A stretch of 64,000 bases of DNA from Alphaproteobacteria bacterium (GTDB lineage: Bacteria > Pseudomonadota > Alphaproteobacteria > UBA1280 > UBA6503), in contig JAJFIW010000003.1 of the NCBI GenBank assembly GCA_021774615.1, positions 7,867 through 71,866 of the forward strand, given 5' to 3'. The notes beneath the pieces were generated by a model. The model was not told where the DNA came from. It searched no databases and worked only from the letters and a program-made list of their open reading frames with translations. The stretch's first letter is position 1; each line of letters begins with the position of its first letter. A program made the translations under genes and the position numbers. Shown here piece by piece: positions 505-32,758 of the stretch.

Positions 505-612
505 AGCACCTTCGACATTCCGAGTCGCCGCAAGGCGAGAGGTTGTCGACAGTCTGCGGAACGCAGCACCAAGCATCTGGCTTTGCCAGTGCGCAGGTGG
601 ATTAAAAAATTG
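505..612 (-). repeat. about 100-nt structured repeat, copy A; directly abuts the 3' end and T-run of rnpB
   Basis: Minus strand reads ATTTTTTAATCCACCTGCGCACTGGCAAAGCCAGATGCTTGGTGCTGCGTTCCGCAGACTGTCGACAACCTCTCGCCTTGCGGCGACTCGGAATG... It is about 80% identical to 8605-8705 on the plus strand. The first hairpin shows compensatory changes: CTGGC/GCCAG here versus TAGGC/GCCTA in copy B. Confidence 0.5.
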
Positions 613-958
613 CAGTTCGCCGATAAGCCGGGTTTTGTCGAGAGCTGTCATTCATCTATGGTAAATGTTGCCATTTACCTTTAGCGACCTACCCGAACGC
701 CTCCTACAAGGGGCAGTCAAACAGCGTTCCTATTTGGTCTTGCACCAGATGGGGTTTTGCGTGCCTTGGGCTGTTACCAGCCAAGCGGTGGGCTCTTACC
801 CCGACCTTTTCACCCTTACCTACCAAAGGCAGGCGGTATATTTTCTGTGCCACTTTCCCTAGGGTTACCCCCGCCAGACGTTATCTGGCATCTTCCTTTA
901 TGGTGCCCGGACTTTCCTCGTTTATGTAAACACAAACGCGACAACTTAGCGAACTGCC
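605..958 (-). ncRNA. rnpB: RNase P RNA, bacterial type A
   Basis: Minus-strand reading contains GAGGAAAGTCCGGGCACCATAAAGGAAGATGCCAGATAACGTCTGGCGGGGGTAACC...GGTAAGGGTGAAAAGGTCGGGGTAAGAGCCCACC...GGTAACAGCCCAAGGCACG...ACCCGGCTTATCGGCGAACTGCAA. These are universally conserved RNase P blocks. P1 pairing is GCAGTTCGC (5', ~957) with GCGAACTGC (3', ~620-612). Ends are approximate to about 5 nt. Confidence 0.85.
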
Positions 959-3642: not shown

Positions 3643-4071
3643 ATGATTTATAAACTCCGCTTAGTGTTTGACTATCCTCTTGCATTACAAGAGGTTTCTC
3701 GTTGGTCTAAGCTACGGTTAGTGATGGTGCACCATTTGCTGGCAGTTGGGTTTTTTTTGCACCCATATACTTTAGCTGCAACAGCTTTGTTGGCATCATT
3801 CTTGCTTGTATTTGAGAGTATAAAAGCCGAACCATACACAGCAGACAATATTCGTTTTGGTTGGCAACGTATTATACTGGCTATGGCCGTAAATTTTGCT
3901 TTTATGGGGCTACAAGCTAGTGGCGCTGCTGAAGTTTCGCACTGGTGGTGGGTATCTTTAGTGGGTATTACAGTTAGCTTGTACGATGGTTATTTAGTAT
4001 GGCATGGGATAACAGGTATTTTTTATATAAACATAAAGCGGAAGAAGGCTTATGTCGGCACGACTGATTAA
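3643..4071 (+). CDS. hypothetical integral membrane protein
   Basis: 142-aa ORF with three to four hydrophobic helices, overlapping the start of the downstream EAL gene by 20 nt. No recognisable motif. Confidence 0.35.
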   Translation: MIYKLRLVFDYPLALQEVSRWSKLRLVMVHHLLAVGFFLHPYTLAATALLASFLLVFESIKAEPYTADNIRFGWQRIILAMAVNFAFMGLQASGAAEVSHWWWVSLVGITVSLYDGYLVWHGITGIFYINIKRKKAYVGTTD

Positions 4072-6082
4072 TTTATTCTGGCTTGTTGTGCTTCTTGCAG
4101 GGGCATTGGTAGCTGGCGGTTGGCTGGCCGAAAAACTTATCCACCTTGAAGACAGGAATACAGACTACTGGCAATCACAGCTACAAGAAGCTAGTAAAGA
4201 GCAATCTAGTGTTATTAATAAATGGTTGGTAGACCAAATTAATATCTCTAAAGAAATTGCCAAAGACGATAGAATTTATAATTTCCTCAAAAAAGCTAAT
4301 GATAGCGGGATGCTACCCCCTAAGGCTGAAGCAGTACGAGCTATACATGAATATGCAAAGCTAAAATATGGCCTTAACCATACATATTTATTTTCTAAAG
4401 ACGGTAGGCTGCTTTTATTCCAAGAAAATGCTAGAGAACTACCGTTAAAAATCAGAAAAACTCTAGCGGCTGCATACCAAACAAACTTGGATAGGTATTC
4501 ATTTATTTCCTTGGTTGATCATAAGAAGTGGTTGTTTGTTTCGTCTCGAGTTAAGCAAGACAATAAAAACCTTGGCTATGTAGTCTATATGATCGAGGTT
4601 AGCGCCGCTGCTAATATTCTAAAAGATAGCTCTTTTCGTTGGAGATATGTTGATTTTAACCTCGCACGCCGCAATGGCGATGATGGTGTTTTTATTATTA
4701 ATTGGGGTGAAAATAAAACTAGTGCCTTTTTATATAAATTATCCCAGATAGAAATACCTCTGTTTAATGGTAAAGCTGAAGAATTTGGTCTTTATAAATT
4801 ACCAAATGGCCAGGAACGGTTTATGTTTACCTCGATTATACCAGAATTTCCATTTTGGCAGCATGTTGGCTCTGTCCAGCTTGATGTTGCATATGAGCAA
4901 GTAAACAAAACACGTAATTTTTATTTGCTTAGTGCAGCTGTAGTTTTATTGTTCTTACTTACATTAGTAGCAAGGATTATGGGGCGGATTATCAACCCTG
5001 TAGCGCCTTTATTCCCTAGTTATATAACTAAAATTACTGGGAACAAAACCAAGCATACACCAGCCCCACAAAAGCAACCACAGAGTATGAAACCACAAGA
5101 ATTATTCAAAAAAATACGTGTTGCATTTACTGGTAGTAAGTCTCGGACTCTTTCAGAAGAAGAAAAAGAACTAATAAAGAAAAGAAACCAGCCACCGCAA
5201 CAAGAGCCTGCTACTAAAACAAAGCCAGCTGCTAAAGTTGAACCGGTACAAATTGCTAAAGAAGAACCAGCAGTAGCTACAAAGGTAGAAGAGCCTATAA
5301 TTGCACAGACCGAAGAAGAAAAAGCAGAAGCTGCCGAAAGAGAACAAATAAAACAAATCCATAGATGTATCGAAAATGAGCGTTTCCGTCTTTACTTCCA
5401 ATCCATTCTTGAAACAAAGAACAAGAAAAAGGTAATGTTCGAAACCTTATTGCGCTTGGTTTCAGATAATGGTGATTTGATGCAACCTAACGAATTCATC
5501 CCCTTGGCATTTAAACACAATTTTATTGACCAAATTGACGACATGGTAATTATTGCCTCATTAAGAAGGCATATGGAAATATTGTCTCAGGGTAAAGATA
5601 TTATGCTTAGCATAAACTTGTCTTATGGCGCATTTAGTAGCGTAAACTTTAAAAATACTTTTAAAGAAGGGCTCGATAGCGGGAAAATTCGTCCTGATTT
5701 AATTAACTTCGAGCTAAGCTCTAAAGAAATAATAGAAGATGATGCCGCCATGGGTTTTGTAAGAGACATGCAAGCAAAAGGGGCTAGGTTCTCTGTGGAT
5801 TATTTTGGTAATAATAAGCAAACAGTAGAAGCGGCCAAAAAACTAAAGTTTAATTACATGAAAATTAATGCTCTTAGGTTTGATGGCCTAGACCGAGGCT
5901 TGCCCGAGCAAATAGAGAAATTTCAGGAGATTATCCTTGCAGGCCAAGAAAACAGCCTACCAATGATAGTAGAAAAAATAGAAAATAAAGCAGTGCTAGA
6001 TTTGTGCGAGAAGCTTAAAGTACCTTATGTGCAAGGTTTCTATTTAGACGAACCATCACCTAAATTAACGCTAGGTTGGTAA
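4052..6082 (+). CDS. membrane-anchored EAL-domain protein with partly degenerate motifs: two TM helices, a periplasmic domain, a K/E/P/A-rich linker and an EAL domain
   Basis: An N-terminal TM helix, a periplasmic domain of about 260 aa, a second TM helix, a low-complexity linker (about residues 330-450) and a C-terminal EAL fold. EAL-domain motifs are altered: YQPI is YFQSI here, EALLR is ETLLR, DDFGTGYSS is DYFGNN (second Asp lost), and the Glu of EGVE and the QG are retained. Confidence 0.75.
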   Translation: MSARLINLFWLVVLLAGALVAGGWLAEKLIHLEDRNTDYWQSQLQEASKEQSSVINKWLVDQINISKEIAKDDRIYNFLKKANDSGMLPPKAEAVRAIHEYAKLKYGLNHTYLFSKDGRLLLFQENARELPLKIRKTLAAAYQTNLDRYSFISLVDHKKWLFVSSRVKQDNKNLGYVVYMIEVSAAANILKDSSFRWRYVDFNLARRNGDDGVFIINWGENKTSAFLYKLSQIEIPLFNGKAEEFGLYKLPNGQERFMFTSIIPEFPFWQHVGSVQLDVAYEQVNKTRNFYLLSAAVVLLFLLTLVARIMGRIINPVAPLFPSYITKITGNKTKHTPAPQKQPQSMKPQELFKKIRVAFTGSKSRTLSEEEKELIKKRNQPPQQEPATKTKPAAKVEPVQIAKEEPAVATKVEEPIIAQTEEEKAEAAEREQIKQIHRCIENERFRLYFQSILETKNKKKVMFETLLRLVSDNGDLMQPNEFIPLAFKHNFIDQIDDMVIIASLRRHMEILSQGKDIMLSINLSYGAFSSVNFKNTFKEGLDSGKIRPDLINFELSSKEIIEDDAAMGFVRDMQAKGARFSVDYFGNNKQTVEAAKKLKFNYMKINALRFDGLDRGLPEQIEKFQEIILAGQENSLPMIVEKIENKAVLDLCEKLKVPYVQGFYLDEPSPKLTLGW

Positions 6083-6170
6083 AACTTAATAAATGTTGTA
6101 GAATATCTGTGTATAGCTGTTCCTTTAGGCGGAACTTGGCGACAACTTAAGATAAGGAAAGAGATTTTCT

Positions 6171-6440
6171 ATGGCAGAAGGTAAAAACACAGACGCTTCT
6201 AGTAAGGGCTCAGGGGTAAAGTCGCGCCGTAAAACACCACCAAAGTCTGACGCAGAGCTATACCAGCTGCCTGAATCTATTTTTACTAAATTTATCCGAG
6301 CCGAGCGCCGCCAAGACGAGCGAGAGCGCCTCGAAGACATCCAAGAGCAAAAGAAAGACTGGCAAAAAACACTAACTTTCTATGCTGTTGTTATGGTTCT
6401 GCTAGTTCTTTTGTCTATGTGGGGTCTTGTATGGAAGTGA
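6171..6440 (+). CDS. small tail-anchored protein, paralog 1
   Basis: 89 aa with a basic N-terminus, conserved ELYQLPES..FIRAERRQDE..R.....QEQK..W block and a single C-terminal TM helix. Paralogous to the next ORF; a GGAAAGAG RBS lies upstream. Confidence 0.5.
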   Translation: MAEGKNTDASSKGSGVKSRRKTPPKSDAELYQLPESIFTKFIRAERRQDERERLEDIQEQKKDWQKTLTFYAVVMVLLVLLSMWGLVWK

Positions 6441-6451
6441 GAATTTCTTAG

Positions 6452-6697
6452 ATGACAAAAAATAAAAAAACGACAAGCGCACGTCGTAAGTCTGGTACAA
6501 AGTCAGAGGCTGAGCTATACAAACTACCTAAATCCACCGTTGACGAATTCATCAAATCCGAACGCCGCCACGACGAACTAGACCGCATGCGCGAAGTCCA
6601 AGAGCAGAAACAGACTTGGCGTAGGACTATGTTTTTATGTGGACTTTTAAATCTTATTTTCCTGATATTAGCATACATTGGGTGGATGAATGGTTGA
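6452..6697 (+). CDS. small tail-anchored protein, paralog 2
   Basis: 81 aa sharing the ELYKLPKS..FIKSERRHDE..R.....QEQK..W block and C-terminal TM helix with 6171-6440. Stop overlaps the start of the GGDEF gene. Confidence 0.5.
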   Translation: MTKNKKTTSARRKSGTKSEAELYKLPKSTVDEFIKSERRHDELDRMREVQEQKQTWRRTMFLCGLLNLIFLILAYIGWMNG

Positions 6698-8366
6698 ACC
6701 ACGTAAACACTATATTGGCTGGGCACAGGCATTCTTTAGTGTGATGGTGTTATGGGGTATAAGTAATGTATTTATGAGTTACTCCACTCAAGTTCTAGAA
6801 GTCCATAAAATTATTTTTGCCTGTACAACTTTCACAAGTTGTTCTTTTTGTCTTCTTTTCTATGCAGGTAGCGGTAAGCTCTCTAAGGAAACCCTTCGTA
6901 GTATAGACACTTGGGCTTATGGCATAATTATGCTTATAAATTACTTTATTACACTTAATTTATTTAGTGTTGTTACAGCTACAGAAGCGAGTCTTTTACA
7001 AAGGTTTAGTGTTATTTTTAGCTTATTTAGTAGCTGGGTATTTCTTATGCGTAAGCCCAATAAATGGCAGCTGATTGGAGTCTTTGCAATTGCAATTGGT
7101 TTGCTTGTTATTTGCGATGCAATACCAGAAGAAAAAGCAATGACAGTTTATATTCTAATGTTCTTGGCAGGGGTATTTCAATCACTTCGCTTATTTGTTG
7201 CAGAATTTCATCGTCCTCATCAAAAAGCTGTAGAGACGAATGATATAAAATCGAGATGTCGTGTCATCGGATATATAATGTTTGTAATTACCTTAATTTT
7301 TGTGGGCATTACAGCAGGAGTAGCTTTTTTACAGTCCTCTGTTGTACCAGAGAATCGAATTCTGTTTCTTATCCAACCAGAAAATTTCTTTCACATGCCA
7401 AGTATTATAGCAGGTATGGTTATGGGAATATTTATTTACACACCTATTCGCTATCTTGAATTTGCGAGTACACATATAATTAAAACAGAGAACTATCTTA
7501 CTATTACATCTTTCTCATTCTTCTCTACACTCTTTTGGGAGTGGGCTACAATGCCCTTAACAGGTTTATCCTTAAAAGAGTTGTCTAATACGGATATCAT
7601 AGCTGGTGTCATAATTACAGCTGGGGCTCTGATTATGGCTCTAAGTAAGCTTAGGGAAATCAAGAAAGAGGATAATAGCTTTGGTAGCTATATCTACCTA
7701 GAAACCCAAAACCTCACAGCCGTAGACGACAGCCGAGAAATAACGGCGAATACACTGGAGCATTTCGGGGGTGATGTTGTAAAGGCAGCAGGGGCGTTGG
7801 ACGTACCACCTAGTGTTATTACTGCATTTTTAGACGATAAGGAAAAGGTACTAGCCTTTAAAAACCTGCCCGATATTGCCCGTATTTACCGCCATAAAGT
7901 AGCAGGTTGTGACGCTCTGACAGGGTTAATAAACCGAGCAGGGTTTATGATTACCCTGCGCAATGCGCCTGCAGAATTTAAAATTTTTAGTATTTTGTAC
8001 CTAGACCTAGATAAATTTAAACCCGTTAACGATACCCACGGCCACGATGCTGGTGACGAAGTTTTAAAAGCTGTCGCCAACCGTCTAGAAGAAGCATGCC
8101 CGACAGATGCGATTATAACTAGGATGGGAGGTGATGAATATTGCATAATACTCCCTAATTCTGACAAGAAAATGGCTGATAGTAAAGCAAACTATTTGCA
8201 ACAAGTCATAGCTAAACCATTCAAAATCAGAGGTATTGCAGAGAAAATAGAGATTGGCGCCTCAATTGGCATTGCAACCTACCCTAAAGACGGCAAAAAC
8301 GTAGAAAAACTCCTCACAATAGCTGATGGCAGCATGTACGGGGTTAAACATTTAAAAGATAATTAA
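6690..8366 (+). CDS. integral-membrane diguanylate cyclase (GGDEF domain, GGDEY variant)
   Basis: About 8 N-terminal TM helices followed by a C-terminal GGDEF fold: LDLDKFKPVNDTHGHDAGDEVL ... RMGGDEYCIIL. No RxxD I-site upstream of the GGDEY motif. Confidence 0.8.
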   Translation: MVEPRKHYIGWAQAFFSVMVLWGISNVFMSYSTQVLEVHKIIFACTTFTSCSFCLLFYAGSGKLSKETLRSIDTWAYGIIMLINYFITLNLFSVVTATEASLLQRFSVIFSLFSSWVFLMRKPNKWQLIGVFAIAIGLLVICDAIPEEKAMTVYILMFLAGVFQSLRLFVAEFHRPHQKAVETNDIKSRCRVIGYIMFVITLIFVGITAGVAFLQSSVVPENRILFLIQPENFFHMPSIIAGMVMGIFIYTPIRYLEFASTHIIKTENYLTITSFSFFSTLFWEWATMPLTGLSLKELSNTDIIAGVIITAGALIMALSKLREIKKEDNSFGSYIYLETQNLTAVDDSREITANTLEHFGGDVVKAAGALDVPPSVITAFLDDKEKVLAFKNLPDIARIYRHKVAGCDALTGLINRAGFMITLRNAPAEFKIFSILYLDLDKFKPVNDTHGHDAGDEVLKAVANRLEEACPTDAIITRMGGDEYCIILPNSDKKMADSKANYLQQVIAKPFKIRGIAEKIEIGASIGIATYPKDGKNVEKLLTIADGSMYGVKHLKDN

Positions 8367-8505
8367 GTGCAAAGTTAAACTACTATAACGTAACGTTACA
8401 TCTTTTAACAAAATGTTATAACAATTCGTTGTATTATAAAAATTGCCATAAAATACAACTACCCTAACCTATTGTTTTTATTTATAAAAACTAACTGGTA
8501 AAAGT

Positions 8506-8521
8506 TGGCACTATGCTTGCA
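8506..8521 (+). promoter_or_regulatory. sigma54 (-24/-12) promoter TGGCAC-N5-TTGCA
   Basis: TTGGCACTATGCTTGCA is an exact match to the RpoN consensus GG-N10-GC spacing. No ORF follows; a Rho-independent terminator lies about 65 nt downstream. Confidence 0.45.
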
Positions 8522-8584
8522 CCTATACTAACTATGTGACCTTGCTATTATTTTAGTGAAGTACCCGACACACACAAAACTTTT

Positions 8585-8612
8585 GAGCCGCAATTAGCGG
8601 CTCTTTTTTTTG
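8585..8612 (+). terminator. Rho-independent terminator
   Basis: GAGCCGCAATTAGCGGCTC stem-loop followed by TTTTTTTT. Confidence 0.7.
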
Positions 8613-8705
8613 GTTTTTAATCCACCTGCGGTTAGGCAAAAGCCTAACTCTTGGTGCTGCGTTGGGCAGACTGTCGACAACCTCTCGTCTAGCGGCGACT
8701 CGGGA
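8605..8705 (+). repeat. about 100-nt structured repeat, copy B; directly follows the terminator T-run
   Basis: TTTTTAATCCACCTGCGGTTAGGCAAAAGCCTAACTCTTGGTGCTGCGTTGGGCAGACTGTCGACAACCTCTCGTCTAGCGGCGACTCGGGATG. Inverted relative to copy A at 505-612. Confidence 0.5.
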
Positions 8706-8710
8706 TGTCT

Positions 8711-10078
8711 CTAGGCTTGCCATTTCTTAAGCTTACGGTCAAGCGCTGGGCGAGAGATATTTAGAATATCGCAGGTTTTGCCTTTATGGTTACCTGTTGC
8801 TTCTAGAACGTTTAAGATATGCGCTTTTTCTACTTCTTCTAAAGAAATAAGCTGTGTTGAGGCTGTAGGGGCTAGGTCAAGGTCTGTTGTGGCTGCGGCT
8901 GTTGGTAGGTTAGGGTTAATGTCTTCAACGTCTATGTATGCTTGCTGTGCGTGGGCTGCGGCTCTGGTTAAAACGTTCTCTAGCTCGCGGATATTGCCTG
9001 TCCAAGGTTGTGCTTTTAGTTGTGTCATACCATCTAAGGTAATCCCCTTAATGGTTTTACCTAGGCTGTGGTTAATCCGCATTAGTAAGTTGCTTACAAT
9101 CGCGGTGAAGTCAGACATCCGCTCTTTTAAAGTTGGGATGTAAATATCAATAACATCAAGGCGGTAAAATAAATCTTCACGGAACTTGCCCGCCGCTACC
9201 ATTTTGCGTAAATCCCGATGAGTCGCAGCAATAATCCTAGCGTTAGTAGTTAATGTTTTATTGCTACCTACACGCTCAAAGGTTTGCTCTTGTAATACTC
9301 GTAGTAATTTTGCTTGTAAATGTGGCGACATTTCGCCAATTTCGTCAAGGAACAAAGTGCCATTTTCAGCAATCTCGAAACGCCCTTGTTTGGCTTGGTC
9401 AGCACCTGTAAAAGCACCTTTTTCATGCCCAAAAAGTTCGCTCTCGAGCAATGTATCAACAATTGAGGCACAGTTTACAGCAACAAAAGGGCCTTTATGT
9501 TCGCCATGGCTATGAATGGCTTTTGCCACTAGCTCTTTACCTGTTCCTGATGCACCTTGGATAAGTACATTGGCAGTATTTTGGGTGGCAATAGCAATTT
9601 TTTTGCATACTTCAATCATCTCGGCGCTGCTGCCAGTAATTTCAGGGGTAGTATCTTCTTGGGAAGGCGCAGTATTTACCGTAGCTTTTTTAGTGTCAGC
9701 TTTAAGAGCATGGTGAATAATAGTATCAAGCTTTTGTAGGTCTATAGGCTTATGGACATAATCAAAAGCACCTGTTTTCATGGCAGTGATGACTAATTTC
9801 ATATCGTGAAAACCAGTAACCATTACAACTGGCCGCTGGTTGTTGTCTTCCAAGAGCCATTGCAATAATTTTAGACCATTTGTATCGGGCAAGTGTTGGT
9901 CAAGGAGAACAAGCTTACAAGCATTTGTATCTAAAAACTTTTTGGCTTCAGCGCCTGTGTGTGCAATGTGGGTTGTAAGGCCTATATCATCAATGTGTAG
10001 GCTTAGCATTTCAGACAAAGATTCATCATCGTCAATAATTAGAATGTCGCAGGTACTCATTATTGTGGTTGCTCCCAC
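8711..10078 (-). CDS. sigma54-dependent response regulator, NtrC/NtrX family (REC + AAA+ + Fis-type HTH)
   Basis: N-terminal receiver with ILIIDDDES and a phospho-acceptor Asp, an AAA+ domain with GASGTGKE and the ESELFGHEKGAFTGA (GAFTGA) motif, and a C-terminal HTH. Confidence 0.85.
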   Translation of the reverse strand: MGATTIMSTCDILIIDDDESLSEMLSLHIDDIGLTTHIAHTGAEAKKFLDTNACKLVLLDQHLPDTNGLKLLQWLLEDNNQRPVVMVTGFHDMKLVITAMKTGAFDYVHKPIDLQKLDTIIHHALKADTKKATVNTAPSQEDTTPEITGSSAEMIEVCKKIAIATQNTANVLIQGASGTGKELVAKAIHSHGEHKGPFVAVNCASIVDTLLESELFGHEKGAFTGADQAKQGRFEIAENGTLFLDEIGEMSPHLQAKLLRVLQEQTFERVGSNKTLTTNARIIAATHRDLRKMVAAGKFREDLFYRLDVIDIYIPTLKERMSDFTAIVSNLLMRINHSLGKTIKGITLDGMTQLKAQPWTGNIRELENVLTRAAAHAQQAYIDVEDINPNLPTAAATTDLDLAPTASTQLISLEEVEKAHILNVLEATGNHKGKTCDILNISRPALDRKLKKWQA

Positions 10079-30156: not shown

Positions 30157-31986
30157 CTACTCAACCGTAACCGACTTTGCGAGGTTTCGTGGTTGGTCAA
30201 CGTCAGTGCCTTTAATTACGGCCACATGGTAAGCTAGTAATTGTACTGGTAGTGCCATTAGAATTGGGGCAACAAATGGGTGGGCATCAGGGGTAATAAA
30301 TTTACCGCCGCTCATTTCTCCTGCTGTATCAGCAGCTGTTTTATCTGAGAGTAAATATACTCTGCCTTTTCTGGCTTGTACCTCGTGGATATTAGAGAGT
30401 GTTTTTTCTAGTAGCGCGCCACCAGTTGCTAATGCAATAATTGGCATTTTCTCGTCTACTAGGGCAATTAAACCGTGCTTCATTTCGCCAGCGGCAGCAC
30501 CTTCGGCGTGGATATAGCTAATCTCTTTTAACTTTAATGCGCCTTCTTGGGCAATGGGGAACAACGAATTGCGCCCTAAGTACAAGGCTGATGTTGCTGG
30601 TGCAATGGCTTCCGCCATTTCTAAAATTTCATTTTCTTTGTCTAAAATTTGCATCATCCGCTGTGGTGTTTGGATAAGTGCTTGTAGTAGGCTATGGCGA
30701 GTTTTATCGTCGAGCTTGCCCTTTGCTTCAGCTAGCTTAATTGCAAATAGTGCTAGCACTACTAGTTGGGTGGTAAACGCTTTGGTAGATGCCACGCCAA
30801 TCTCAGGGCCAGCAAAAGTTGTTAGTACTCCGCTAGCTTCTCTTGCAATAGTACTAGTTGGCACGTTTACAAGGCCTAAGGTGTGTTGGTTTTGTTCTTT
30901 AGCAAGCTCTAGCCCTGCAAGTGTGTCAGCAGTTTCGCCGCTTTGGGATATAAAAATACTAAGGCTATTTTTTATAAAAGGTGGCTTACGGTAGCGAAAC
31001 TCTGATGCTACATCTACATTAACTGGTGTGTCTGCTAATTCTTCAAACCAATAGCGGGCTACCATTGCTGCATAAGACGATGTACCACAAGCAATTAGGT
31101 TTATTTGCGCTATGTCGGCAAGGTTAAAAGGCATATTTGGTAATATAATATCTTGGTGGTTATCGCTAAGGTAGGCTTCAAGTGTTTTACTAATAGCATG
31201 TGGTTGTTCGTGGATCTCTTTAAGCATAAAATGCCGATAACCATCTTTACCAGTAATACTTGCCGATACATCTACAATGTTTTCTTGGCGAATAATTGTT
31301 TTGCCATCTGGGCGGTAAATTTTAATTTCATCGGTGCTTATAACTGCAATGTCATCGTTATCAAGATAAGTAATTTTATTGGTAAAAGGTGCTAAGGCAA
31401 TGGCGTCTGATGCAATATAGTTTGTACCATTCCCACGACCTGCTAAAAGAGGGCTACCACGGCGAGCAGCGAATAAAGTATTTGGTGTTTTATTAAAAAC
31501 AACCCCTAAAGCAAATGCACCCTCAACTTGGTTTAAGGTTTTAATAACAGCATCAAGCTCGTTCATACCATTTTTTAGGTTTTCGCTAATAAGAATTGGC
31601 AAAACTTCGGTATCAGTCTCAGACTTGAAAATATGCCCTTTAGCAATAAGTTTATCTTTAATCTCTTGGTAGTTTTCGATAATGCCATTGTGTACTACAG
31701 CGCATTTTTCAGACATATGGGGGTGGGCATTTTCTGTGGTTGGCTCACCATGGGTTGCCCAACGGGTGTGGCCAATAGCTAAAGAGCTACCTGCAGTAAA
31801 GGGGTTTTCAATAAATGCTTGCTTAAGGTTTAGTAATTTACCAACTCGGCGTGTTACGTCTATATTACCATTATGGATAGTGGCAATCCCAGCCGAGTCG
31901 TAACCACGGTATTCTAGCCGTTCTAAGCCAGTTAGAACATCATCGGTTGGATGGTCTGAACCTACAACACCAAAAATCCCGCACAT
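30157..31986 (-). CDS. glmS: glutamine--fructose-6-phosphate aminotransferase
   Basis: Starts MCGIFGVVG (N-terminal Cys nucleophile) and ends ...VDQPRNLAKSVTVE, both GlmS hallmarks. ATG at 31986; the track shows an upstream TTG. Confidence 0.9.
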   Translation of the reverse strand: MCGIFGVVGSDHPTDDVLTGLERLEYRGYDSAGIATIHNGNIDVTRRVGKLLNLKQAFIENPFTAGSSLAIGHTRWATHGEPTTENAHPHMSEKCAVVHNGIIENYQEIKDKLIAKGHIFKSETDTEVLPILISENLKNGMNELDAVIKTLNQVEGAFALGVVFNKTPNTLFAARRGSPLLAGRGNGTNYIASDAIALAPFTNKITYLDNDDIAVISTDEIKIYRPDGKTIIRQENIVDVSASITGKDGYRHFMLKEIHEQPHAISKTLEAYLSDNHQDIILPNMPFNLADIAQINLIACGTSSYAAMVARYWFEELADTPVNVDVASEFRYRKPPFIKNSLSIFISQSGETADTLAGLELAKEQNQHTLGLVNVPTSTIAREASGVLTTFAGPEIGVASTKAFTTQLVVLALFAIKLAEAKGKLDDKTRHSLLQALIQTPQRMMQILDKENEILEMAEAIAPATSALYLGRNSLFPIAQEGALKLKEISYIHAEGAAAGEMKHGLIALVDEKMPIIALATGGALLEKTLSNIHEVQARKGRVYLLSDKTAADTAGEMSGGKFITPDAHPFVAPILMALPVQLLAYHVAVIKGTDVDQPRNLAKSVTVE

Positions 31987-31990
31987 GGTA

Positions 31991-32758
31991 TTATGCCTCT
32001 TTTTTAACAAGGCAGCGTTGCTGGTAAATGGCTTCTGCTTCTTTTAATTGGCTTGGAGAGTTAACCCCTAATAATGCAAGCCCATCATCAACATGCAAAG
32101 TGTTTACGGCTAAGCCTCGGTCGCTAGCTAAAGCAATAATATCGGTAAGGTAAAACTCGCCACTGGCATTATCGTTAGATACATCTTTTAATAATTCAAA
32201 AATTAGGGGTGCTTTTACCATGTAAATCCCTGTGTTGATCTCATGGATTTGGCGTTGGGTTTCACTAGCGTCCCTATGTTCAATGATTTTTTTGAAATTA
32301 CCATTCTTATCGCGGATAATTCTACCAAGGCCTGTAGCATCATCAAGAGTGGTCGTGAGTACGGTAATAGCTTCGTTTTTAGAAATATGTTGAGTTTGCA
32401 AGTTTCTAACAAGGTGTGGCGTTACTAGCGGTACATCACCACTAAGGATGATTACATCACCAACAAAACCTTTAAGAGCTTGTTCTGTTTGTTGTACGGC
32501 GTGGCCTGTGCCTAATTGCTCGGCTTGGTACGCAAATTTAACTCCAGGGAAAGTAGCAGCAACATTACTTTTAACAGCATCTGCCTGATGGCCTACAATC
32601 ATAACAATTGGCTCTAGCCCTTTTGCAGCTTCTAGTACGTGGTGCACCATTGGGGTGTCTGCTAATGGGTGTAATACTTTAGCAAGGTCAGACTCCATAC
32701 GGCGCCCTTTGCCACCAGCAAGTACAATAACAGCTGTTGGGTGGTTTGATGTATTCAT
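31991..32758 (-). CDS. glmU: UDP-N-acetylglucosamine pyrophosphorylase: GlmU N-terminal uridyltransferase domain only, LbetaH acetyltransferase domain absent
   Basis: AVIVLAGGKGRRMESDLAKVLHPLADTPMVHHV..., QAEQLGTGHA, LSGDVPLV, EHRDASETQRQIHEINTGIY and GEFYLTDIIAL are collinear with the GlmU pyrophosphorylase domain (established family knowledge). The protein stops after the linker helix at residue 255. The glmS ATG follows 4 nt later. Confidence 0.8.
   Translation of the reverse strand: MNTSNHPTAVIVLAGGKGRRMESDLAKVLHPLADTPMVHHVLEAAKGLEPIVMIVGHQADAVKSNVAATFPGVKFAYQAEQLGTGHAVQQTEQALKGFVGDVIILSGDVPLVTPHLVRNLQTQHISKNEAITVLTTTLDDATGLGRIIRDKNGNFKKIIEHRDASETQRQIHEINTGIYMVKAPLIFELLKDVSNDNASGEFYLTDIIALASDRGLAVNTLHVDDGLALLGVNSPSQLKEAEAIYQQRCLVKKEA

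Follow-up and report, generated by a model that had tools for sequence, protein, structure and literature searches.

The question raised by this locus is whether a sigma-54 promoter core followed by a Rho-independent terminator, with no gene in between, forms a transcription unit of its own. The original prediction had read it as the gene of a sigma54-dependent small RNA (sRNA) of about 80 nt, and this reading of the predicted transcript is supported by comparison with seven further loci. We consider it probable that positions 8384-8611 of the window (the whole stretch of DNA analysed, 64 kb in length) constitute a self-contained sigma-54-dependent gene of a ~80-nt sRNA, with the convergently encoded NtrC-family enhancer-binding response regulator (EBP) as its likely activator and pairing in trans as its likely mode of action. 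The comparison set consisted of the window and the loci L081, L082, L083, L084, L088, L090 and L095, L085 being the L084 sequence in a second assembly; these eight loci represent about five independent sequence types.

Promoter, upstream sites and predicted transcript

The -24/-12 element TTGGCACTATGCTTGCA occupies 8505-8521 of the + strand (TGGCAC, 8506-8511; TTGCA, 8517-8521), and the exact agreement with the consensus that had been claimed for it is confirmed. When both strands of the 64 kb were scanned for TGGCAC-N5-TTGCW, this was the one exact match, and when one mismatch was allowed there were five matches against 3.5 expected. In dinucleotide shuffles of the window, exact matches averaged 0.16 and 14 out of 100 shuffles held at least one, and therefore the motif by itself is only mildly improbable. 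This frequency lends some weight to the view that a chance sigma-54-like motif stands before a terminator which merely ends the GGDEF and/or EBP transcripts, as does the lack of any other terminator from the GGDEF stop codon (8366) up to 8585. The main evidence against chance is comparative: the entire predicted module recurs at seven further loci, where promoter, geometry, RNA core and terminator are kept with no GGDEF gene upstream, and the chance explanation, effectively refuted, retains next to no probability. As regards its position, the promoter lies 140 nt downstream of the GGDEF stop codon and is therefore intergenic; its earlier placement in the 3' region of the diguanylate cyclase gene was wrong, this neighbourhood being specific to the present genome.

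At sigma-54 promoters, an EBP binds upstream dyads, IHF bends the DNA and the sigma-54 polymerase opens the promoter. A search for EBP palindromes had been proposed for 8380-8500, and this region turned out to hold a dyad (UAS1), a weaker second one (UAS2) and an IHF-like site (Table 1); on sequence, putative activator dyads at -140 and -107 are thus combined with an intervening IHF-like site at -61. UAS1 is the sole match to the dyad TGTAACG-N3-CGTTACA with three or fewer mismatches in the 64 kb, and its centre falls between -139 and -141 in six loci (the window, L081, L082, L083, L084 and L095) and at about -120 in L088 and L090. A second site is found 32-33 bp, or three helical turns, from UAS1 in the window, L084, L088 and L090, its position being about -87 in the last two, and the UAS2 block is partly conserved in the upstream alignment, which comprises 185 nt ending with, and including, the promoter core. 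The IHF-like pattern stands at exactly -61 in the same six loci and at -50 in L088 and L090. Throughout this alignment, the invariant columns cluster in UAS1, in the IHF-like site (where the TAA and TTG columns are invariant) and in the -24/-12 core, the remainder having diverged, and the positions of the UAS and IHF-like sites are conserved to within 1-2 bp. The DNA elements, their conservation and their fixed geometry are shown in silico.

Table 1. Positions in the window of the predicted sRNA gene, its control elements and selected neighbours
Feature	Position	Strand	Remarks
RNase P RNA gene	608-957	-	
GGDEF gene, EamA-like membrane domain + GGDEF	6690-8366	+	Pfam
UAS1, dyad TATAACG-TAA-CGTTACA	8384-8400		Centre -140; 1 mismatch to TGTAACG-N3-CGTTACA
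Putative UAS2, weaker, TATAACAATTCGTTGTA	8417-8433		Centre -107; 33 bp from UAS1; 4 mismatches to the dyad
IHF-like site TAACCTATTGTTT	8465-8477		Pattern YAA-N4-TTGATW, 1 mismatch; centre -61
Sigma-54 -24/-12 promoter core TGGCAC-TATGC-TTGCA	8506-8521	+	Unique exact match in window; kept in 8 loci
Predicted sRNA, ~80 nt	8532-8611	+	5' end inferred from -12 position; 3' end from T-run
5' stem-loop SL1, CCUUGCUA ... UAGUGAAG	8540-8561	+	Predicted in each homologue and by RNAalifold
Conserved single-stranded core AGUACCCGACACACACA, putative seed	8560-8576	+	Unpaired in consensus structure
Rho-independent terminator GAGCCGC-AATTA-GCGGCTC + T8	8585-8611 (hairpin 8585-8603, T8 8604-8611)	+	7-bp G+C-rich stem, 5-nt loop
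Orphan NtrC-family enhancer-binding response regulator (EBP)	8711-10060	-	Receiver, AAA+ sigma-54 activation, HTH_8; putative cognate activator

Promoter and terminator were found as originally described, but the coordinates first given were off by one base; with C8520 taken as -12, the predicted start moves to ~8532, and the terminator to 8585-8603 plus T8. The strength of this terminator (7-bp stem and T8) and the absence of an ORF before it were both borne out, no ORF of at least 30 aa being present on the + strand between predicted start and terminator, where the sole ATG immediately meets TGA. What is predicted is, in short, a non-coding unit that stands alone, having a promoter of its own and ending in a Rho-independent terminator and U-tail, and the sRNA gene is very probably real.

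The sRNA region folds more stably than shuffled controls (z-score of -4.3), and single-sequence folds and RNAalifold agree on a 5' hairpin, a single-stranded stretch of ~24 nt and the terminator. A trimmed alignment was used for the RNA, since MAFFT places the 5' arm of SL1 wrongly if the promoter forms part of the input. For the terminator, compensatory changes occur in four of the eight helix pairs and 98% of cells pair, and across the loci its hairpin has 7-9 G+C-rich pairs followed by 6-9 T/U. For SL1, one G-C to A-U compensatory change was found and 81% of cells are paired when the register is held fixed, the window and L084 requiring a shift by one; given this shift, the single exchange and the small number of independent sequence types, support for the 5' hairpin is thin, and SL1 may be regarded as weakly to moderately supported. 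Downstream of it, AGTACCCGA is invariant in six of the eight loci; in these, the core AGUACCCGA is invariant, unpaired in the consensus fold and followed by a CA-rich tract. The core has diverged in L088 (GGUAUCCCCGUACAC) and in L090 (GGUAUACCG...CACACAC).

A seed, a U-rich stretch, a hairpin and a U-tail form the layout of chaperone-dependent base-pairing sRNAs, and AGUACCCGA, conserved and predicted to be accessible, would provide the seed region of such an RNA; the chances that the sRNA acts by base pairing in trans are put at about even. That the RNA titrates a protein or encodes a micropeptide instead is very improbable. In fact, the CA-rich tract of the window RNA would suit titration, and sigma-54-dependent sRNAs do include protein sponges or decoys such as CrcZ (PMC6296734), but GGA motifs are lacking from the window RNA, in which the conserved motif occurs only once. 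Concerning a micropeptide, there is no conserved ORF among the loci: in the window there is nothing but ATG-TGA, and the L081 group has an ATG, within the 5' hairpin loop, that the window, L083 and L084 do not share.

When the sRNA region was compared with Rfam at gathering and permissive thresholds (E up to 10), no family matched, Qrr included, and the best weak matches, mmgR and BjrC1505 (E 0.18-0.34), aligned to the terminator only. An nhmmer profile run on the window and 104 compared sequences detected no second copy or paralogue, the window having one copy.

Related loci and the adjacent gene of the putative activator

In each of the seven metagenomic loci, the EBP orthologue is 56-67% identical to that of the window and the module is placed tail-to-tail with its gene: the element TTGGCA[CT]-N5-TTGC[AT], unchanged across all eight loci, is followed by 55-82 nt of non-coding sequence with a 5' stem-loop, and then by a G+C-rich hairpin and a T-run. 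The gene order xth / bolA-EBP is also common to the window and the seven loci, the EBP gene following bolA and xth being divergent. Upstream of the sRNA, none of the seven has a GGDEF gene or any co-directional gene; a gene for a small membrane protein and an EAL gene are found there in divergent orientation, and the explanation of a long GGDEF 3'-UTR is therefore removed. The original prediction had proposed looking for TGGCAC-N5-TTGCA and the terminator in relatives, and had set two outcomes against itself, namely a motif not conserved there and a terminator that only ends the GGDEF 3'-UTR. Promoter and terminator are both present beside the orthologous EBP gene at the seven loci, the module as a whole is kept, and no upstream gene is available for the terminator to end, so that neither objection holds.

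A metagenome scan with the DNA pattern gave 11 matches, L095 being the only true homologue; the other 10 were set aside as unrelated sigma-54 promoters of mRNAs or as coding sequence. A scan of genome contigs with the EBP protein returned paralogues only (35-44% identity), because the peptide patterns matched the generic AAA+ core. The closest EBP homologues, with 53-67% identity, are all metagenomic, and the UvrB of the window shows at most 76% identity to others in the collection, the nearest named MAGs (with Alphaproteobacteria, Magnetococcales and Pseudomonadota labels) standing at 63-66%. Judging from these values, the source is an uncultured, poorly sampled Pseudomonadota lineage.

The EBP had been described as the sole sigma54 activator of the window, encoded convergently with the promoter, and a scan for the GAFTGA/ELFGH signature confirmed it as the only such protein. 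Pfam assigns it receiver, Sigma54_activat, AAA_lid_14 and HTH_8 domains, and GAFTGA is present; an EBP with a GAFTGA AAA+ domain and a DNA-binding domain therefore accompanies the sigma-54 promoter, its putative cognate status following from co-occurrence. It misses all the NCBIfam equivalog cut-offs to which it was compared (AtoC with 412 of 714 bits; NtrC, LuxO and GlrR as given below). Neither rpoN nor hfq is located within the 64-kb window, and both genes are assumed to be present elsewhere.

The dyad provides a link between this EBP and the promoter. Among all sequence compared, dyads with no more than one mismatch were found only beside EBPs of this group; in the remaining 716 kb, including 80 paralogous EBP loci, there were eight matches, all with two or three mismatches and none close to a sigma-54 motif. 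Moreover, the dyad was detected in a cultured organism, Sedimenticola thiotaurini (L103, CP011412.1), whose EBP is 49% identical and has different neighbours. Within 5430-5600 of that sequence, TTTAACGTTTCGTTACA at 5443 overlaps a second site at 5456, and TGGCACGGCGCCTGCT at 5527 (TGGCAC-GGCGC-CTGCT core) lies directly downstream of the EBP gene. There, nhmmer gave no sRNA match, and dyad and promoter stand before two genes of the same strand, coding for an ECF/PhyR-like sigma factor and a response regulator, an arrangement predicted to be a sigma-54-dependent sigma-factor cascade. Since the dyad accompanies the EBP gene in Sedimenticola though the target differs, the neighbouring EBP is the likely activator, and no stronger argument for this pairing of EBP and promoter emerged. 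A different situation is met in three marine relatives (Tara), whose EBPs show 53-55% identity: an Hpt-domain gene convergent with the EBP gene takes the sRNA position (L086 5345-5689, L087 5361-5702 and L091 5347-5706, all on the - strand), and no sRNA (nhmmer), sigma-54 core or good dyad was found nearby.

The assignment of the EBP to the promoter, based on adjacency and co-occurrence, is likely, and in our judgement the neighbouring EBP probably does activate the sRNA promoter. It is quite improbable that the sRNA, real and sigma-54 dependent, answers to another EBP encoded elsewhere and that the adjacency is historical. The HTH_8 recognition helix, which is alike in many EBPs and is conserved also in the Hpt-type lineages, would allow for this, as would the existence of these sister lineages, with a similar EBP and no adjacent sRNA; however, the dyad co-occurs with this EBP group over 49-67% identity and with two kinds of downstream target, and it is absent beside the 80 paralogous EBP loci.

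The tail-to-tail arrangement, found in eight of eight loci, could also be understood as a device acting mainly in cis, where EBP-driven convergent transcription, or antisense pairing through a shared bidirectional terminator, would repress the EBP gene and the short RNA would be a by-product. In L088 and L090 the U-tail of the sRNA abuts or overlaps the EBP stop codon, from which 19 nt separate it in L084; furthermore, the hairpin has a poor U-tract on the EBP strand, so that transcription of the EBP gene may continue across the sRNA in antisense. Such an effect in cis is nevertheless unlikely: the terminator is strong, with 7-9 G+C-rich pairs and 7-9 U, the module is retained in the window, L081, L082 and L083 in spite of gaps to the EBP gene of 98-668 nt, partly filled by repeat elements, and interference needs no conserved single-stranded core.

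Possible targets and neighbouring genes

With the preferred reading of an sRNA pairing in trans, the question of its targets was approached in three ways. Scanning every ORF start of the window for duplexes returned mostly spurious ORFs, exact matching to the core's complement gave nothing consistent, and a scan of the translation-initiation regions of neighbouring genes against local background, in the eight loci, favoured no gene consistently. Pairing with the start regions of the adjacent TM-EAL, GGDEF, bolA, EBP or xth genes gave no signal above background and was rejected for want of a conserved complementarity signal. A glmS gene, with glutamine amidotransferase and SIS domains, is found 20 kb away in the window, at 30157-32010 (-), and did not rank among the predicted pairings; enterobacterial glmS is the classic target of the sigma-54-dependent GlmY and GlmZ.

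Genes of c-di-GMP turnover recur nearby, EAL in all the loci and GGDEF additionally in the window, an association which hints at a lifestyle decision. In the window, the TM-EAL operon is co-directional with the sRNA and about 2.5-5 kb upstream of it, and 4052-8366 carries the EAL gene, then two small ORFs and the EamA-GGDEF gene, whereas in the L081-L090 relatives the operon is divergent; this genome therefore has an inversion or insertion, with the sRNA promoter and its upstream sites left intact. The two small ORFs, in tandem at 6171-6440 (+) and 6452-6697 (+) and coding for 89 and 81 aa, are related to each other (K-S-[DE]-A-E-L-Y-[QK]-L-P ... ERR-x-DE ... and a C-terminal hydrophobic helix); they have no Pfam match and are not present in the related loci.

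In the window, a repeat of ~100 nt, at 8613-8712 (+), fills the space that separates the sRNA terminator from the EBP stop codon. A second copy at 514-608 (-), 92% identical over 60 nt plus 17/17, directly follows the RNase P RNA gene at its 3' end, and in L083 three related repeat units with ACTCGGGATGCCGTCCTAC lie between sRNA and EBP gene (5680-6000). In appearance, this repeat is a REP/MITE-type element inserting next to terminators.

A second sigma-54-like core, TGGCATCATTCTTGCT, was noted at 3791-3806 (+), inside the small membrane-protein ORF (3643-4071) that precedes the EAL gene. Perfect TGGCAC-N5-TTGCT cores are located inside the corresponding ORF of L081 (6171), L082 (6008) and L088 (5979), and none is present in L083, L084 and L090. 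Where found, the core runs in the sense direction, 116-293 nt before the EAL start codon, and it falls at homologous codons (LALxLL) in the window, L081 and L082 and elsewhere in the ORF in L088. It could simply reflect the coding of a membrane helix. In the relatives, the dyad pair lies between the TM-EAL operon and the sRNA promoter, so that one enhancer might serve both. Taking this further, an independently evolved LuxU-LuxO-Qrr-like circuit may be imagined in uncultured, deep-branching marine Pseudomonadota, with an orphan EBP fed by Hpt, one sRNA as its main direct output and, in most lineages, an enhancer shared with a divergent promoter in the membrane-protein ORF before EAL. We regard this circuit as rather unlikely; if it were true, a signal would be coupled to c-di-GMP turnover both transcriptionally and post-transcriptionally.

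Proposed mechanism and known systems

We infer from the elements described that the sRNA is transcribed, that the EBP activates it, where its 5' end lies and that it works by pairing with targets, and the following sequence of events may be proposed. The EBP would be phosphorylated by a kinase or a phosphorelay, the Hpt gene at the sRNA position in sister lineages suggesting that it stands at the end of a phosphorelay. It would then bind both dyads (TGTAACG-N3-CGTTACA), located near -140 and -107, and be brought to the sigma-54 RNA polymerase at TGGCAC-N5-TTGCA by an IHF-type bend at -61. Hydrolysis of ATP would open the promoter and give rise to an RNA of ~80 nt ending at the intrinsic terminator. 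In this RNA, a 5' hairpin, a single-stranded stretch of 24 nt (AGUACCCGA plus the CA-rich tract) and a U-tailed hairpin would make up the layout of a chaperone-assisted trans-acting sRNA, whose AGUACCCGA core would most likely pair with mRNAs encoded elsewhere in the genome.

To our knowledge, sigma-54-dependent sRNAs are few and each well-studied one heads a major decision. Qrr is concerned with quorum sensing, CrcZ with carbon catabolite repression, GlmY/Z with the supply of cell-envelope sugars, and NrsZ with nitrogen and motility. The present sRNA gene, as predicted, comes with a precisely positioned promoter, a candidate activator and a candidate binding motif, in a lineage represented by metagenomes only. 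Furthermore, the output of one activator and its site would be an sRNA in one lineage and, in Sedimenticola, an operon with a sigma-factor gene, a case of rewired signalling output. The new RNA family could be used in the annotation of MAGs, with no concept being overturned.

A close parallel to the mechanism proposed is found in the Vibrionaceae, where one qrr gene adjoins luxO and LuxU is an Hpt protein. In the LuxO-Qrr system, a phosphorylated NtrC-family regulator, together with sigma-54, activates short, terminator-ended, trans-acting sRNAs (PMC13501541). As in LuxU-LuxO-Qrr, an Hpt gene is placed beside the EBP gene in the sister lineages analysed here. On the other hand, the sRNA gives no match to the Qrr family of Rfam (RF00378), and the EBP, at 329 bits, falls short of the 800 required for LuxO (NF041946). 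The dyad is TGTAACG-N3-CGTTACA, and the LuxO-type site TTGCA-N3-TGCAA was not found in 8300-8505 even with one mismatch allowed. Unlike Qrr, moreover, the sRNA gene is convergent with the EBP gene and downstream of it, rather than divergent and upstream, is present in a single copy and belongs to a non-vibrio lineage.

In Pseudomonas, crcZ is immediately downstream of cbrB, and CrcZ, of about 400 nt, sequesters Hfq/Crc through repeated A-rich motifs. Its promoter depends on sigma-54 and IHF and is served by an NtrC-family activator through TGTTAC/GTAACA-type hexamers, the CbrB subsites being non-palindromic and of variable spacing (PMC6296734). The hexamers of the present dyad (TGTAAC/GTTACA) look similar; unlike the CbrB subsites, they form a compact dyad of 17 bp. 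The predicted RNA also differs from CrcZ, being of ~80 nt with a single core motif, convergent with its putative activator gene rather than co-directional, and with no match to the CrcZ family of Rfam.

The promoters of GlmY and GlmZ are likewise sigma-54 dependent, with multiple activator sites and IHF, and glmY is situated beside its own two-component system (GlrR/QseF). In contrast with that system, the EBP reaches 295 bits against 763 for GlrR, no GlmY/GlmZ match was obtained in Rfam and the binding motif is different. Sigma-54-type sRNA genes adjoining NtrC-like activator genes are known as well in NrsZ (Pseudomonas, with NtrC) and in Pxr beside nla19 (Myxococcus). From these the present case is distinguished by an EBP score of 383 bits against 559 for NtrC, by the lack of sequence or Rfam similarity, and by another orientation and lineage. 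Since the RNA models, the equivalog thresholds and the binding sites all fail to fit, the predicted sRNA is set apart from Qrr, CrcZ, GlmY and NrsZ, and it would represent a new family of sRNAs in a circuit of known type, where an NtrC-family activator and sigma-54 drive an adjacent sRNA gene.
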